Assembly (NCBI GenBank): GCA_002718395.1
Contig: PBEG01000004.1
Coordinates: 1-46,928 of the forward strand
Length of the DNA: 46,928 nt
Source of the DNA: Chloroflexota bacterium
GTDB lineage: Bacteria; Chloroflexota; Dehalococcoidia; UBA2979
Direction of reading: 5' to 3'
Shown here: in pieces, positions 26,913 to 45,587 of the stretch
Position numbering within the stretch: the first letter of the stretch is position 1
How the letters are laid out: every line of letters starts with the position of its first letter
Position numbers and translations under genes: made by a program
The notes under the pieces: generated by a model
Seen by the model: the letters and a program-made list of their open reading frames with translations, nothing else
What the model was told of the DNA's origin: nothing
Database searches by the model: none

Positions 26913-27509
26913 TTATTCTTCTTTCAAAAAAATATCCAACACATTTTTAGTTATATGTTTTTTTTTATCGGAGCCACAATTTCTTATTTCTGAAGAAGAA
27001 ATATCCAAAATATTTTTTTCAACAAAAATCAATCCACTTAAATTAACCTTTGCCTTGTTTAATTGAAGAACTAAGTCTTTAACAACTGGCCCTGAAGCTC
27101 CCACCCTTGGGAAAACAACAACATTAACCAAATCAAATAACTGTTTGTAATTTTTCCACGACTGAATACTTAAAAAACTATCCATGCCCATAATTACAAA
27201 AAAATTTGCATTTTTATTTTCGTTTTCAATCAAACTGTTGACAGTGTTAAACGTATAAGAGGTTTTTTCGTTCTGCTCCCAATTAACTACTTTTGTTTTT
27301 TGAATCTCAGAAAAAGCCTGAGTTGCCATTTGTAATCTTTTTTTATAACTATTTACCCCCAAACGCTTCTCACCAACAACCCCGCCAGTTGGACAAATAT
27401 AAAGCTTGTCCAACTCAAGCACATCAACAGAAAAAGAGGCAATTTCTTCATGACCTTTATGTGGGGGGTCAAACGCCCCGCCAAAAAAACCTATATTTAA
27501 AACTCCCAA
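26913..27509 (-). CDS. nadD: Nicotinate-nucleotide adenylyltransferase
   Basis: GFFGGAFDPPHKGHEEIA and a C-terminal ISSSEIR motif. TTG start with GGAGGAAAGGAAG upstream. Overlaps the obg 3' end by 13 nt. Confidence 0.88.
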   Translation of the reverse strand: MGVLNIGFFGGAFDPPHKGHEEIASFSVDVLELDKLYICPTGGVVGEKRLGVNSYKKRLQMATQAFSEIQKTKVVNWEQNEKTSYTFNTVNSLIENENKNANFFVIMGMDSFLSIQSWKNYKQLFDLVNVVVFPRVGASGPVVKDLVLQLNKAKVNLSGLIFVEKNILDISSSEIRNCGSDKKKHITKNVLDIFLKEE

Positions 27510-28642
27510 CTAACTTCCTTTCCTCCAACCAAAACAATGTCTCCGTTTTTGGCGCCAGATTTCATCAGATCCCTATTTACCCCCAAAAGCTTCATTCTTC
27601 GAAAAAATTCATATCTAGCCTCACCATTCGACAAATCTAGAGTTTCAGCAAGAAGATTAGGTGTGCTGCCATCTAAAAGAAACTTGTTGCTTTTTTTTAA
27701 AACAACAAACTTGTTTTTCTTGGGTTGTGGTTTTTTTGTCTCTAGGCCTAATTTCTCTTCTGTTTTGCCGGTATCTAGGGTAGAAAAATGATTTTGGAGT
27801 CTTTTTTTTATCTCATTGACCACAACCGTGTTGTTTGTTTGTCCATAAACAATTGTCAAATGGTCTTTTTGCCCGCCAACAACTATTTTAATTATTTCTT
27901 GTTTGTTGTCGCACATGTCAACATATTTTGAAAGAAGAGACTCGGTCTCAACAACACACAACACAACACTCGCCGATCTAATATATTCACTTGTTTGTTT
28001 GGTTTCTGACGCTGGGATGTCGGCCACCACAAGAAGCGTCTTTCCTTCTTCGTATGTACCATAATTTACCGCCTGTGTTGTACCAGGATAAGCGCCAGTT
28101 TTCGCCTTCGACCCACTAAGCGCATTTAGTAGGGTTGTTTTTCCAGAGTTGGGCTCGCCTATTATGATTGCGTCTGCGGTGCTTTTGGGCACAACTTCAA
28201 TTGTGACTGTCTCGCCTTTTTGCCCATTTTGAGAAAAGCGCGGTGTTTTTCTGTTTGGCAACACGAACTTCGTGTTGCCCCAACCACCCTTACCACCTCT
28301 GGCTAACAGGTGTGTGTGTTTGTTTGTGTATTTAATTTCCTTTTTCTCGTTGTTGTTTGTTATCCACAAAGAGTAGTTTTTTGGAACAAGAACCGTGGAG
28401 TGTTCCCCTGCTTTTCCGTTTTTGTTGTTTGTGTCTCCCTTTTGCCCGTTTTGCGCTCTAATAAGAGACCCTGTAGCTTTGTCGAAGTCTGTGGGTTTAT
28501 TTAAAAATTTAGCATATATATTGCCGCCATTGCCGCCATTGCCGCCATCTGGTCCTCCTTTTGGTACCTTGTAAGATCTTTTGAAGGAAACTATTCCATC
28601 TCCGCCTTTGCCTGCGTGCAAGATAATTGTTCTTTTTTTCAT
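27497..28642 (-). CDS. obg: Obg/CgtA-family GTPase homologue with a degenerate G domain
   Basis: Obg fold (GKGGDGIVSFKRSYKVPKGGPDGGNGGNGGN...ARGGKGGWGN), P-loop GEPNSGKTT, G2 PGTT, and a C-terminal OCT domain (EARYEFFRRMKLLGVNRDLMKSGAKNGDIV). G3 reads DIPA, and G4 reads GQKD instead of NKxD. Confidence 0.85.
   Translation of the reverse strand: MKKRTIILHAGKGGDGIVSFKRSYKVPKGGPDGGNGGNGGNIYAKFLNKPTDFDKATGSLIRAQNGQKGDTNNKNGKAGEHSTVLVPKNYSLWITNNNEKKEIKYTNKHTHLLARGGKGGWGNTKFVLPNRKTPRFSQNGQKGETVTIEVVPKSTADAIIIGEPNSGKTTLLNALSGSKAKTGAYPGTTQAVNYGTYEEGKTLLVVADIPASETKQTSEYIRSASVVLCVVETESLLSKYVDMCDNKQEIIKIVVGGQKDHLTIVYGQTNNTVVVNEIKKRLQNHFSTLDTGKTEEKLGLETKKPQPKKNKFVVLKKSNKFLLDGSTPNLLAETLDLSNGEARYEFFRRMKLLGVNRDLMKSGAKNGDIVLVGGKEVSWEF
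28360..28368 (+). promoter_or_regulatory. Perfect DnaA box TTATCCACA inside the obg coding sequence
   Basis: Exact 9-mer read at 28360-28368. On the minus strand it encodes part of LWITN. Confidence 0.6.
28521..28547 (-). repeat. Perfect in-frame 9-bp tandem triplication (ttgccgcca x3) encoding GGN-GGN-GGN of the Obg glycine-rich fold
   Basis: Read directly: 28521-28529, 28530-28538 and 28539-28547 are identical. Confidence 0.9.
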
Positions 28643-28689
28643 CTCTTCTTCTTTATTATATGTTTCTTTTTTATATTATATATCTTTTT
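28643..28689. other. AT-rich tract (7 G/C in 47 bp): candidate DNA unwinding element. It also carries two TATAAT hexamers on the obg strand
   Basis: ctcttcttctttattatatgtttcttttttatattatatatctttttt. The minus strand reads TATAAT at 28680-28675 and 28660-28655. Confidence 0.45.
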
Positions 28690-28704
28690 TAGTAGTAGTA
28701 GTAG
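28690..28704 (+). repeat. (TAG)5 array, DnaA-trio-like (3'-GAT-5' x5), followed by GGG at 28705-28707
   Basis: tagtagtagtagtag ggg, read directly from the sequence. Confidence 0.6.
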
Positions 28705-28707
28705 GGG

Positions 28708-28725
28708 TGTTGATTTTGTTGATAA
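28708..28725 (-). promoter_or_regulatory. Tandem DnaA-box-like 9-mers TGTTGATTT and TGTTGATAA (minus strand: TTATCAACA AAATCAACA)
   Basis: 28717-28725 differs from TGTGGATAA at one position. 28708-28716 differs at three positions. Both abut the G cluster and the TAG array. Confidence 0.5.
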
Positions 28726-28797
28726 GTTGGTTTTTTTAGTTATAAAACGTTGTTTTTTGTGTTGGTGGGTTGTGGGTTTATTGAAAAATGTGTTTGT

Positions 28798-28809
28798 TTG
28801 TTGTTGTTG
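28798..28809 (+). repeat. (TTG)4 microsatellite
   Basis: Read directly from the sequence. Confidence 0.9.
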
Positions 28810-28837
28810 TTTTGATCGCTTGTTGTTTTTAGTTGCT

Positions 28838-28855
28838 GTTGTTGTTGTTGTTGTT
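28838..28855 (+). repeat. (GTT)6 microsatellite, which is (AAC)6 on the transcribed strand
   Basis: Read directly from the sequence. Confidence 0.9.
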
Positions 28856-28878
28856 TTGATGGTTTGTTGTTTTTATGT

Positions 28879-30273
28879 TTATGCTATTTTTCTTTTTCGA
28901 TCGATAAGTTCTTTTAGGTTGGAAACATCTCTTTTGATTTCTTCATCGATAATTTGACCCTTGTCCATTTTTCTCCAACCATGGTGCACGGTTGAGTGGT
29001 CTCTGTTCCCTAGAGAACGGCCGATTTCAACTAGTGAAATGTTTGCAACCTCTCTCAGTAAGTACATGGCCATTTGTCTTGGGTAGGCATATTGTTTTTC
29101 TCTGTTGTTAGAAAGGAGGTCGGTGTTTTGCAGTTTGTAATAGTCACAGACAACTTCAACAATTAAATCAACGGAGGGAGGAGAATAGAGGCTTTCCGAT
29201 GTTTGTAGGTGCCTAAGGGTGTCTTCTACTAAAGCAACATTAATGTCTTCTCCTGTAAGGCGGGATGCAGCCAGTAATCGTGTTAGAGAGCCTTCAAGCT
29301 CCCTGACATTATTTGTGCAAATGTCCGCTATTTTATATAAAACAGCACTTTCAATTTTTACTTGATGTATTTTAATTTTTTCTTTTAAAATTGCCATTCT
29401 AGTTTCAATGTTTGGAACCTGTAAATCTGCTATCATTCCCCACTCAAATCGCGACTGCAACCTTTCTTCTAGTTGTTTAATTTTATTAGGGCTTTTGTCA
29501 GAAGAAATTACAATTTGTTTTCCTGCCTCATAAAGTTCATTAAAGGTATGAAAAAACTCTTCTTGGGTTTGTTCTTTCCCGGCGATGAATTGAATGTCAT
29601 CAATTAGAAGCACGTCAGTTTTCCTGTAAATATTTCTAAAGTTTCTTTGGTTTCTTTTTTGAATAGAAGCAATAAGTCGATTTGTAAATTGTTCTGCGGA
29701 AAGATATACAACATTAAGACCTTGTTCAATACATGAATGACCAATTGCATGTAATAAATGAGTCTTTCCAAGACCTGCTCCTCCATATAAAAACAACGGA
29801 TTAAACTCTTTTCCGGGACTGTTAGAGGCAGATTGCGATGCTGCAAAAGCTAATCTATTAGACGGGCCAACAATAAAATTATTAAAAATGTAATTTTTGC
29901 GTAGGCTTGGTTGATTAGCTGACCAACCTTGTTGTTGTTTTTCTTCTTTTAGATTGTGCTCTGTTGTTTTTTCATATTGTGGTTGAAGAGCAAACACTTT
30001 TTCATTTTTATCTTCTTTTTGAATTGAAACAGTTTTGAATTCAATATCTAATGGTTCATCAGCTCTTTTTGCAACAAGCTTCAGTATAAGCGGCTTAAGC
30101 CTTCTTTCTAGCCACTCATTAACAAATTCAGATCGAGTACCAATAATTAAAGTAGAACCCTGAAACGAAATACCTATTGTGTCTTTTAACCAAGTGTCAT
30201 AGTTAGGTTTTGAAATGTTTTCTGATAAGTCTTCTAAAACTTCTTGCCAGAGATTTGAAGCGTCTAATTTCAC
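28879..30273 (-). CDS. dnaA: Chromosomal replication initiator protein DnaA
   Basis: N-terminal LWQEVLEDL...YDTWLKD, AAA+ GGAGLGKTHLLHAIG, LLIDDIQF, and a C-terminal DNA-binding domain (YPRQMAMYLLRE...GNRDHSTVHH). Confidence 0.97.
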   Translation of the reverse strand: MKLDASNLWQEVLEDLSENISKPNYDTWLKDTIGISFQGSTLIIGTRSEFVNEWLERRLKPLILKLVAKRADEPLDIEFKTVSIQKEDKNEKVFALQPQYEKTTEHNLKEEKQQQGWSANQPSLRKNYIFNNFIVGPSNRLAFAASQSASNSPGKEFNPLFLYGGAGLGKTHLLHAIGHSCIEQGLNVVYLSAEQFTNRLIASIQKRNQRNFRNIYRKTDVLLIDDIQFIAGKEQTQEEFFHTFNELYEAGKQIVISSDKSPNKIKQLEERLQSRFEWGMIADLQVPNIETRMAILKEKIKIHQVKIESAVLYKIADICTNNVRELEGSLTRLLAASRLTGEDINVALVEDTLRHLQTSESLYSPPSVDLIVEVVCDYYKLQNTDLLSNNREKQYAYPRQMAMYLLREVANISLVEIGRSLGNRDHSTVHHGWRKMDKGQIIDEEIKRDVSNLKELIDRKRKIA

Positions 30274-44023: not shown

Positions 44024-44470
44024 ATGGAGATAAAAAATTTCAGCTATAATTTAAATTCAATTGGGCAAATTGTTAATTCTGTTAAGAAGATTCAAGATAT
44101 GCCAACAGCAGGAGTCAGCAGTAAAATAGAAATTCATACAAATCTAAACGATGGCCTTATTGGTCTAGAAGGCTATTCTCATATAATTGTACTAGGATTT
44201 TTACATAAAATGCCAAAACAAAATTTAAATGAATTAAAAATTTTTCCAAGCGGAGACAATGAATTGCCAAAACAGGGGATCTTTGCATTAAGAGGCCAAA
44301 GAACGAATCCTATTTCATTTAATGTTTGTAAAATAAATAAAATAGCTGGTGAATTTATTGAAGTAGAGAAAATTGATTTGGTATCTGGAACACCTGTATT
44401 GGATTTAAAACCATATTTACCATATTATGATACTCCTAATAATGCAACAATACCAAACTGGGCCCAATAA
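44024..44470 (+). CDS. trmO: TsaA/YaeB-family tRNA methyltransferase (TrmO-like)
   Basis: IGQIVNS, GLEGYSHIIVLGFLH, GIFALRGQRTNPI, GTPVLDLKPYLPYYD. Confidence 0.75.
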   Translation: MEIKNFSYNLNSIGQIVNSVKKIQDMPTAGVSSKIEIHTNLNDGLIGLEGYSHIIVLGFLHKMPKQNLNELKIFPSGDNELPKQGIFALRGQRTNPISFNVCKINKIAGEFIEVEKIDLVSGTPVLDLKPYLPYYDTPNNATIPNWAQ

Positions 44471-44483
44471 GGAAGATTTATAT

Positions 44484-45587
44484 ATGGGATTTAAATGCGG
44501 CATAATAGGTTTACCAAATATAGGAAAGTCAACAATATTTAATGCATTGACTCAATCAAAAAATGCACTAGCTGCAAATTATCCATTTGCAACAATAGAA
44601 CCTAATGTTGGACGTGTAGCAGTTCCTGATCATCGATTAAATGATTTGGCTTCTTTAAACGAATCTTTGTCTGTTATACCTACTTATATGGAATTCGTTG
44701 ATATTGCTGGTTTAGTAAAAGGAGCAAATGAAGGAGAAGGGCTTGGTAATAAATTTTTAGGACATATTAGAGAAGTTGATGCGATCGCACATGTTTTAAG
44801 ATGTTTTGAAGACGAAAATATTACACATGTTAATGCTAGGTTGAATCCTGTTGATGATTTAAAAGTGATAGAATCTGAACTTCTTTTATCTGATTTAGAT
44901 ATATTACTTAAACAGCAAGAATTGTATACAAAAAAAATTAAATCTACAGATAAAGAGCTTAAAATTAAATTAGAAATTATTAATCAACTTTTGACTCAAA
45001 TTGATGCTAATCAAGAAATCAACCTAGATGAGATAGATTCCAATTTTATATATTTCGTGGATGAATTAAATTTACTTTCTTTAAAGCCTACTTTTTATAT
45101 TTGTAATGTTGATGAAAATAGCGTTGTTAATGGTAATCAATTTACTAATGATTTAATTAATATTCTTGATAATCAAAAATCAAGAGAAGTGATATTAGTA
45201 TCAGCTAGTATAGAATCAGAAATTTCAAACATTGAGTCTAAAAAGGAACAAAATGAATTCTTAGATGCATTAGGATTAAAAGATACCTCCTTGGACCAAG
45301 TAATTAAAACTGGATATAATTTGTTAGGCTTGTTAACTTTTTTCACAGCAGGTAAAAAAGAAACACGCGCATGGACAATAAAACAAAATACTAATGCTTC
45401 TCAAGCTGCAGGTAAAATACATACAGATTTTGAAAAAGGTTTTATAAGAGCAGAAACAATTTCATATAATGATTATATTGAATTTGGTGGGGAACAGTAT
45501 GCAAAAAATGCAGGGAAAATGCGCCAGGAGGGCAGAGATTATATAGTGCAAGAAGGTGATATTTTTCATTTTTTATTTAATAATTAA
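44484..45587 (+). CDS. ychF: Ribosome-binding ATPase YchF
   Basis: MGFKCGIIGLPNIGKSTIFNALT, FVDIAGLVKGA, a C-terminal TGS-like region (RAWTIKQNTNASQAAGKIHTDFEKGFIRAE). ATG 44484 has AAGGAAG upstream. Confidence 0.93.
   Translation: MGFKCGIIGLPNIGKSTIFNALTQSKNALAANYPFATIEPNVGRVAVPDHRLNDLASLNESLSVIPTYMEFVDIAGLVKGANEGEGLGNKFLGHIREVDAIAHVLRCFEDENITHVNARLNPVDDLKVIESELLLSDLDILLKQQELYTKKIKSTDKELKIKLEIINQLLTQIDANQEINLDEIDSNFIYFVDELNLLSLKPTFYICNVDENSVVNGNQFTNDLINILDNQKSREVILVSASIESEISNIESKKEQNEFLDALGLKDTSLDQVIKTGYNLLGLLTFFTAGKKETRAWTIKQNTNASQAAGKIHTDFEKGFIRAETISYNDYIEFGGEQYAKNAGKMRQEGRDYIVQEGDIFHFLFNN

Follow-up and report, generated by a model that had tools for sequence, protein, structure and literature searches.

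Can an Obg protein stay under selection once the parts of its G domain that recognise guanine and relay the nucleotide state are gone? This question is raised by a gene in a 46,928-nucleotide stretch of DNA from a Chloroflexota bacterium of the class Dehalococcoidia (GenBank assembly GCA_002718395.1, contig PBEG01000004.1, positions 1 to 46,928), the whole of which is hereafter called the window. To our knowledge, Obg is regarded as a universally conserved, essential GTPase. Its essential function, and the need of that function for a cycle of guanosine triphosphate (GTP), guanosine diphosphate (GDP) and guanosine tetraphosphate (ppGpp), is still debated. The obg gene of the window (27497–28642, minus strand; 381 codons plus a stop codon) is the sole Obg orthologue of its genome and encodes a protein with a reduced G domain. 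Judging from sequence, the product is, on balance, an Obg-derived 50S assembly or anti-association factor, in which the phosphates of a nucleotide are probably still bound and guanine specificity and the sensing of GTP, GDP and ppGpp would have been lost.

An Obg orthologue with a reduced G domain

The open reading frame at 27497–28642 is intact, and its 381-residue product has the same three-domain architecture as canonical Obg/CgtA proteins with an OCT domain (B. subtilis 1LNZ, T. thermophilus 1UDX; TIGR02729, TIGR03595). The glycine-rich N-terminal Obg fold (residues 4–150; 28193–28633, all coordinates of the gene being on the minus strand) was matched by the Pfam family GTP1_OBG (PF01018) with 118 bits against a cut-off of 27, and with 120 bits in the genome scan. 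The family MMR_HSR1, the 50S-ribosome-binding GTPase domain, was found at residues 158–251 (59 bits), while the C-terminal OCT domain, also called DUF1967 (residues 317–381; 27500–27694), was recognised by PF09269 at residues 317–379 (34.9 bits, cut-off 27) and by TIGR03595 (41.7 bits, cut-off 37.65). Residues 151–211 (28010–28192) form the phosphate-binding half of the G domain and hold the G1 motif GEPNSGKT (residues 162–169; 28136–28159), the G2 motif PGTT (28076–28087; YPGTT spans residues 185–189) and, at the G3 position, DIPA (residues 208–211; 28010–28021). The P-loop GxPNxGK[ST], the switch I TT and the G3 aspartate are therefore common to the window Obg and canonical Obg, which also provides its best sequence and structure matches and shares the locus of its relatives. 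Thus, the Pfam matches and motif positions bear out the original prediction, made from the sequence by eye, of an Obg homologue in which the Obg fold, P-loop, G2 and OCT domain are intact.

Beyond the G3 position, the likeness to canonical Obg breaks off. Matches to the four NCBIfam Obg equivalog models end at residue 210 or 211, with scores far under the cut-offs (192.5 against 406 for NF008955, 168.7 against 280.25 for TIGR02729 and 164 against 300 for NF008956), i.e., at about half of them, and in phmmer comparisons with the solved Obg structures 1udx, 5m04 and 1lnz the alignment also ends at residue 211, where DIPa stands opposite DIPG. Three concordant MAFFT alignments place a 9-residue gap in switch II of the window Obg, which amounts to a 9–11-residue deletion across its clade, and the remnant SETKQTSEYIRSAS (residues 212–225; 27968–28009), delimited by the alignments and an AlphaFold2 model, lacks the glycine-rich LIEGAxxGxGLG motif. 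What follows is an eroded base-recognition half (residues 226–290; 27773–27967), consisting of beta4, a short alpha3, beta5, beta6 and alpha5. In the same alignments, the NKxD position of G4 is occupied by VVGGQKD (27866–27886) and the SA position of G5 by the YGQ of YGQTN (27836–27850). Two further deletions, which the original prediction had not noticed, take away 12–15 residues behind beta4, by alignment, and some 20 residues from the G4–G5 interval; the second leaves the AlphaFold2 model without helix alpha4. In short, where canonical Obg has DxPG, LIEGAxxGxGLGxxFLRH, NKxD and SA, the window Obg has DIPA and none of these motifs, its alpha4 is missing and its alpha3 is shortened. The degenerate G3, the shortened switch II and the missing G4 and G5 that the original prediction had described were thereby confirmed, and its own caveat that DxxG and NKxD might have been misaligned failed, since neither DxxG nor [NT]KxD could be placed anywhere in the G domain by the three MAFFT alignments. 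The sole candidate for a misplaced G4, NKQE at residues 245–248, was rejected because it precedes beta5, pairs with canonical 'EKPQ' and is not conserved in relatives.

The same positions are degenerate throughout the clade. Members carry A, E or N in place of the G3 glycine, against DMPG or DIPG in every family relative; the NKxD column varies even among near relatives (GG, GE, KE, DI, EE, NE, SG, TI); and the SA position reads G[QSP][TL], in which only G267 is invariant.

The predicted structure agrees with this anatomy. The AlphaFold2 model of the 381-residue protein has a mean predicted local distance difference test (pLDDT) score of 82.5, and its top Foldseek matches are the Obg structures 1udx (E 8e-30), 5m04 and 1lnz. 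The modelled G domain runs beta1-alpha1-beta2-beta3-(5-residue helix)-beta4-(short alpha3)-beta5-beta6-alpha5 at a pLDDT of about 75–87, with alpha4 absent and the switch II remnant forming just the 5-residue helix at 219–223. A Lys/Thr-rich linker (residues 291–316; 27695–27772) is predicted to be disordered, with pLDDT below 50 at residues 291–307, and the OCT domain reaches 90–94.

How such a protein should be classified depends on which features are given weight. With the Obg/CgtA family (TIGR02729) it shares the Obg fold, G1 and G2, the OCT domain, the locus and the single copy, while the G3 DxxG, the glycine-rich switch II and G4/G5 are lacking and the equivalog cut-off is not reached. 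PseudoGTPases are G-domain proteins with degenerate G motifs, and the window Obg resembles them in that the fold is kept and the G3 glycine, G4 and G5 are lost; it differs from them in that G1 and G2 are intact and constrained. Membership in YchF/OLA1 is contradicted by 16.6 bits for TIGR00092 against a cut-off of 279, the lack of NxxE at G4 and the OCT identity of the C-terminal domain. The protein is hence an obg orthologue by descent, yet fails the defining motifs, and is filed here as an Obg-derived atypical or pseudo-GTPase. A literature search returned no paper pairing Obg with pseudoGTPase or with Dehalococcoidia, and no Obg-family example of a pseudoGTPase.

Descent and constraint of the variant gene

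A search of 5.8 billion protein clusters placed the window Obg in a tight clade of about 13 clusters (defined at 90% identity), whose members share 43–100% identity, are 381–392 amino acids long and all show the same differences from canonical Obg; the score drops from 303 to 165 bits at the boundary between the clade and ordinary Obgs. An exhaustive phmmer search of 1.84 billion representatives (50% identity) listed three clade representatives before the score jump. The clusters come from Tara, JGI, ENA, NCBI and Logan assemblies, and this recurrence in independent assemblies disposes of the assembly or sequencing error that the original prediction had named as a possible refutation. Its question of whether the variant defines a clade can be answered positively, as the clade coincides with a single genus, whose genomes measure 1.1–1.2 Mb and have about 33% GC. 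In the rest of the family (f1), the genomes are 2–3.4 Mb and Obg is fully canonical, with the motifs GLPNAGKST, YPFTT, DMPGLIEGASxGxGLGHEFLRHIERT, NKxD and SA/SG. We infer that the genus probably belongs to streamlined SAR202, an assignment that fits the genome sizes of 1.1–2 Mb and GC contents below 40% given for genome-streamlined SAR202 in PMC11994032, where Obg is not mentioned.

All genomes considered here are metagenome-assembled and incomplete. PF01018 scans of the four genus genomes (G000–G003) gave exactly one Obg fold apiece, that of the variant gene, so that the second, canonical copy envisaged by the original prediction was not found in these genomes, which are 52–88% complete (the window genome, G000, about 52% by marker count). 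The gene lies in a conserved dnaA-obg-nadD locus, with dnaA upstream (28879–30273, minus strand) and a nadD-like gene (CTP_transf_like; 26913–27509, minus strand) downstream, and this order is common to the genus, to at least 18 family relatives and to other families of the class. A DnaA tree puts the genus inside family f1 with support 100, its neighbours being genera whose Obg is canonical. The canonical family relatives, the shared locus and the single copy together indicate that the variant arose in place, in the sole obg, on the stem of the genus. The idea that the G domain was swapped in from another GTPase of Era- or FeoB-like type, prompted by GKTTLLN and PGTT, was not supported, because the best specific-family match of the isolated G domain remains Obg_CgtA, at model positions 157–215 only.

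Constraint on the variant is unevenly distributed over its domains. Mean pairwise identity within the clade is 0.64 for the Obg fold, 0.64 for the G1–G3 half, 0.29 for the G4/G5 half (residues 212–290, the switch II remnant included), 0.35 for the linker and 0.67 for the OCT domain, and the values for the same five parts in canonical relatives are 0.59, 0.84, 0.63, 0.38 and 0.56. Ratios of nonsynonymous to synonymous substitution rates (dN/dS, NG86), to be read as relative values, are 0.06–0.10 for the Obg fold, 0.04–0.20 for the G1–G3 half, 0.15–0.35 for the G4/G5 half, 0.1–1.0 for the linker and 0.04–0.13 for the OCT domain in the closest pairs. The G4/G5 half therefore evolves at about the pace of the linker. 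The Obg tree recovers the clade as monophyletic with support 100, on a stem of 2.59 substitutions per site, against 0.1–0.3 for other internal branches, with ordinary branch lengths inside the clade; the stem to the genus in the DnaA tree is 0.63.

The residues that are invariant in the clade within the G domain are G162, N165, G167, K168, T169, T170, L171, N173, Y185, T188, T189, D208 and P210, while G267 at the G5 position is the lone invariant residue of the G4/G5 region. Among them are the positions of phosphate, Mg2+ and potassium ligands (K168, T169, T188/T189, D208, N165 and N173), which argue that phosphate binding is retained. N165 and N173 match the two asparagines described in PMC3466195 as hallmarks of potassium-dependent GTPases. 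The clade has gained the invariant Asn173 five positions after the P-loop lysine (K+5; GKTTLLN), as well as the Gly before the switch I TT (PGTT); its G1/G2 region thus resembles that of the potassium-dependent GTPases Era, Der or FeoB, while the canonical Obgs compared lack this asparagine and have R, S or A at K+5, followed by PFTT.

Two other GTPases of the same genome are canonical. In Der, G1, G3, G4 and G5 are intact in both domains, and the canonical YchF encoded in the window (about 44376–45550, plus strand, including the 44496–44846 region) has GLPNIGKST and an intact Obg-family switch II, DIAGLVKGANEGEGLGNKFL. The erosion is accordingly specific to Obg. Streamlining or low GC as the sole cause was rejected, because this genome has canonical Der and YchF, and because P0113, a low-GC 'SAR202 cluster' Obg, is canonical too, keeping switch II and TKGD. 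A tie between the erosion of Obg and loss of the stringent response was likewise rejected, since three of the four genus genomes encode RelA/SpoT, as do the Obg-less genomes tested; Der is also retained in the genus.

Several further observations concern the locus and its annotation. The nadD-like gene starts 13 nt within the 3' end of obg (27497–27509), and relatives likewise have obg and nadD closely spaced or overlapping; from the sequence, this overlap suggests translational coupling. The 236-nt spacer between dnaA and obg (28643–28878) has low complexity: on the coding strand it is rich in C and A, nearly devoid of G and marked by caa/aac runs, and it finishes with a purine-rich gaagaagag directly 5' of the obg ATG. 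NCBI names of clade members are 'DUF1967 domain-containing protein [Dehalococcoidia bacterium]' and 'Chloroflexi bacterium'. Public annotation does not identify P0129 (MFL2634365.1) and P0306 (MBU93889.1) as Obg, the labels given being 'DUF1967 domain-containing protein' and 'hypothetical protein'.

Erosion and removal of obg in Dehalococcoidia

The Obg equivalog model was used to scan 401 genomes, a sample of the class, and 329 of them scored over the cut-off; the unpublished genome G260, which is among those scanned, has a canonical Obg and supports no claim made here. The Obg fold (PF01018) was not found in 22 of 24 low-scoring outlier genomes, which are 89–99% complete. Genomes without it include all ten tested from family f48, as well as members of f46, f62, f56, f79, f52, f22, f39, f76, f74 and f16. 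In four Obg-less genomes, 95–98% complete, dnaA adjoins nadD with a gap of about 150–360 bp (loci L059 of G080, f48; L060 of G121, f56; L061 of G169, f62; and L062 of G077, f46), and this direct adjacency indicates that obg was cleanly removed from the conserved locus.

Other lineages carry eroded forms of the gene. The most extreme belongs to family f83 (G359, 1.2 Mb; L033:1489–2715, plus strand), whose 409-residue Obg is matched by Pfam only at the Obg fold (163 bits) and DUF1967/OCT; no GTPase domain is detectable, the P-loop position reads GDLSGYAKS and G2–G5 are unrecognisable, so that, from its sequence, the protein looks like an Obg fully without a nucleotide site. In family f30 (G110, L034), the G domain has EIPD and NKSK, and in f67 (G198, L035), G4 is lost. 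Within genus g50 of f30, one genome has SKYD and another ELPA with TKSE, while f28 has SKVD, and f21 combines EIPA and an eroded switch II with a retained NKAD and SA; the loci examined for these further states (SKYD, TKSE/ELPA, SKVD and EIPA) were L043/L047 (G053/G407), L044 (G051) and L046 (G044). The eroded genes stand in the full dnaA-obg-nadD locus, except in f83, where dnaA does not adjoin obg. Across the class, this locus is thus found with a canonical obg, with an eroded G3 and switch II (f21), with a variant G4 (f28, f30), with G4, G5 and switch II lost and the P-loop constrained (the genus of the window), without a P-loop (f83) or with obg deleted (f48, f46, f56, f62). Because different lineages carry different lesions and the genus nests among canonical relatives, the event in the genus was independent of the others.

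Three mid-range outliers, G128, G199 and G183, were dismissed as cases of erosion, being contig-edge fragments or garbled sequence instead. In the single-contig 2.7 Mb genome G209, the Obg fold is split over two adjacent open reading frames (G209:C1:561922–562396; L049/L054), which may reflect a frameshift or a pseudogene, and G403 contains a 15-bit Obg-fold remnant with three stop codons (G403:C44:6420–6653; L039). As well, another short Obg form, P0170 from a marine 'Chloroflexi bacterium', is annotated as 'hypothetical protein'.

RelA/SpoT is retained in the five Obg-less or P-loop-less genomes tested, in which Der scores 496–530 bits. We consider it slightly better than an even bet that free-living bacteria outside the Candidate Phyla Radiation (CPR) can do without the guanine switch of Obg and, in some lineages, without the whole protein. 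Within the CPR, the class ABY1 was described to be without obgE and to keep der, with no mention of Chloroflexota (PMC12641178). That case and the present one are alike in that Obg is dispensable in some small-genome bacteria and Der is kept, as in the Obg-less or P-loop-less Dehalococcoidia tested; they differ in that the lineage studied here is non-CPR and apparently free-living marine plankton, and in that its genus has remodelled obg and not lost it.

Possible function of the variant and its significance

In canonical GTPases of this type, the NKxD aspartate confers guanine specificity, while the DxxG glycine and switch II carry the conformational change that depends on the gamma-phosphate, and in the B. 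subtilis and T. thermophilus Obg structures the switch regions make an interface with the Obg fold. Loss of the G3 glycine, switch II, G4 and G5 should therefore abolish guanine specificity and the relay of the nucleotide state to the N-terminal domain. The most probable course of events is that the sole obg was inherited vertically in a streamlined marine genus of Dehalococcoidia, on whose stem three deletions removed the glycine-rich switch II, part of alpha3 and alpha4; the G3 glycine was lost too, as were G4 (NKxD) and G5 (SA), by which guanine is recognised. The putative 50S-docking modules, the Obg fold and the OCT domain, have remained under strong purifying selection, as have the phosphate and Mg2+ elements (P-loop Lys/Thr, switch I Thr-Thr and G3 Asp), and the base-recognition half survives only as a shortened structural core. 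A role in late 50S assembly or anti-association most likely persists through the Obg fold, and the P-loop probably still binds nucleotide phosphates, possibly with hydrolysis; guanine specificity would be gone, and so would the switch II relay coupling the GTP, GDP or ppGpp state to the N-terminal domain. The net result would be a hard-wired or base-agnostic Obg instead of a guanine-nucleotide sensor. What the analysis shows directly is how the protein is built, that it is the obg orthologue in single copy, that the variant is conserved throughout the clade and that constraint varies by domain; binding to the ribosome, any remaining hold on nucleotides and the lost switch are deduced.

Several points weigh against this interpretation. 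With the genus genomes only 52–88% complete, a second obg copy is conceivable; dS is about 1–1.5 even for the closest pairs, near saturation, so that dN/dS is relative only; and the compositional bias of the genus (33% GC, against a GC-rich family) inflates its long Obg stem branch. The retained P-loop residues may, as far as their conservation can tell, serve structure or contacts with ribosomal RNA (rRNA) phosphates instead of nucleotide binding. Moreover, the f83 protein, an Obg fold with OCT and without a P-loop, is a case in which an Obg of this class can persist without a nucleotide site, and with obg absent from several families, the gene may be weakly needed in the class.

The strongest competitor, to which we assign perhaps one chance in four, is that the protein is a pseudo-GTPase free of nucleotide, its G domain a structural spacer and its P-loop conserved for folding or rRNA contact. 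Such a scaffold would explain why the G3 glycine, switch II, G4 and G5 are all missing and why the G4/G5 half evolves like a linker, and the f83 relative, in which Pfam detects the Obg fold and OCT and no GTPase domain, indicates that the architecture is viable without a nucleotide site. However, G162, N165, G167, K168, T169, T170, N173, T188, T189 and D208 are invariant among sequences only 43–50% identical, and the G1–G3 half matches the Obg fold in its low dN/dS; it is not obvious why a purely structural role should need exactly these ligand residues, and the conservation of G1, G2 and the G3 Asp argues against complete loss of nucleotide binding. A switch of specificity to adenosine triphosphate (ATP) or another nucleoside triphosphate is more doubtful still. 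Without the NKxD aspartate the contact specific to guanine is gone, conservation persists on the catalytic and phosphate side, and there are two precedents. YchF/OLA1 is an Obg-family member whose G4 departs from NKxD, a difference thought to underlie its use of ATP, and whose specificity is relaxed (PMC8779481). SpoIVA is, according to PMC7952092, an ATPase evolved from a TRAFAC GTPase; the likeness would lie in a TRAFAC descendant that lost guanine specificity and kept Walker A and B chemistry. Neither precedent fits closely. YchF keeps DxxG, a glycine-rich switch II and a conserved NxxE, and has a coiled-coil insert and a TGS domain, whereas the G4 position of the window Obg is hypervariable, with no conserved replacement, NxxE or other; SpoIVA stems from another family, acts in spore coat polymerisation and has other domains, and there is no sign that the window Obg polymerises. 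Had a new base pocket formed, conservation would be expected in the C-terminal half of the domain; there is none beyond the single invariant G267 at the G5 position.

That the gene is simply decaying towards loss and functionally irrelevant seems very improbable. The absence of obg from several families of the class, where dnaA adjoins nadD, and the existence of intermediate erosion states would suit such a course, but the reading frames are intact in all clade members, which represent four species-level lineages, with no frameshifts or stop codons seen, and dN/dS of the Obg fold and OCT is 0.04–0.13, the OCT domain being better conserved than in canonical relatives. Least credible, and largely refuted, is an artefact of assembly or sequencing, or a diverged paralogue, with the canonical obg in another part of the genome: the window genome is about half complete by marker count, which leaves room for it, yet the same form appears in independent assemblies from five sources, and the single Obg fold per genome (four genomes), the orthologous locus and the DnaA tree within the family all speak against it. 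The original prediction had offered altered nucleotide specificity or hydrolysis on the one hand and a pseudo-GTPase retained for ribosome binding on the other; both remain the leading readings, and its interpretation as a whole is partly supported. The erosion or loss of obg in other families of the class lay beyond what it had seen.

An Obg that holds nucleotide phosphates and has lost guanine sensing, if that is what the gene encodes, would have consequences beyond this genus. Because the curated models fail on the gene, such genomes may be counted as Obg-less, and this apparent absence affects marker-based completeness estimates and comparative surveys. If these bacteria can indeed do without the guanine switch, the essential task of Obg would reside here in the Obg fold and OCT domain and not in GTP/ppGpp sensing, and in other lineages of the class the task could be wholly taken over. 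These lineages would thus serve as natural separation-of-function alleles, from which it may be learned on which regions of Obg 50S maturation depends, what nucleotide sensing is worth and what compensates when Obg is gone; the retention of Der in every Obg-less or P-loop-less case tested bears on the last of these questions.

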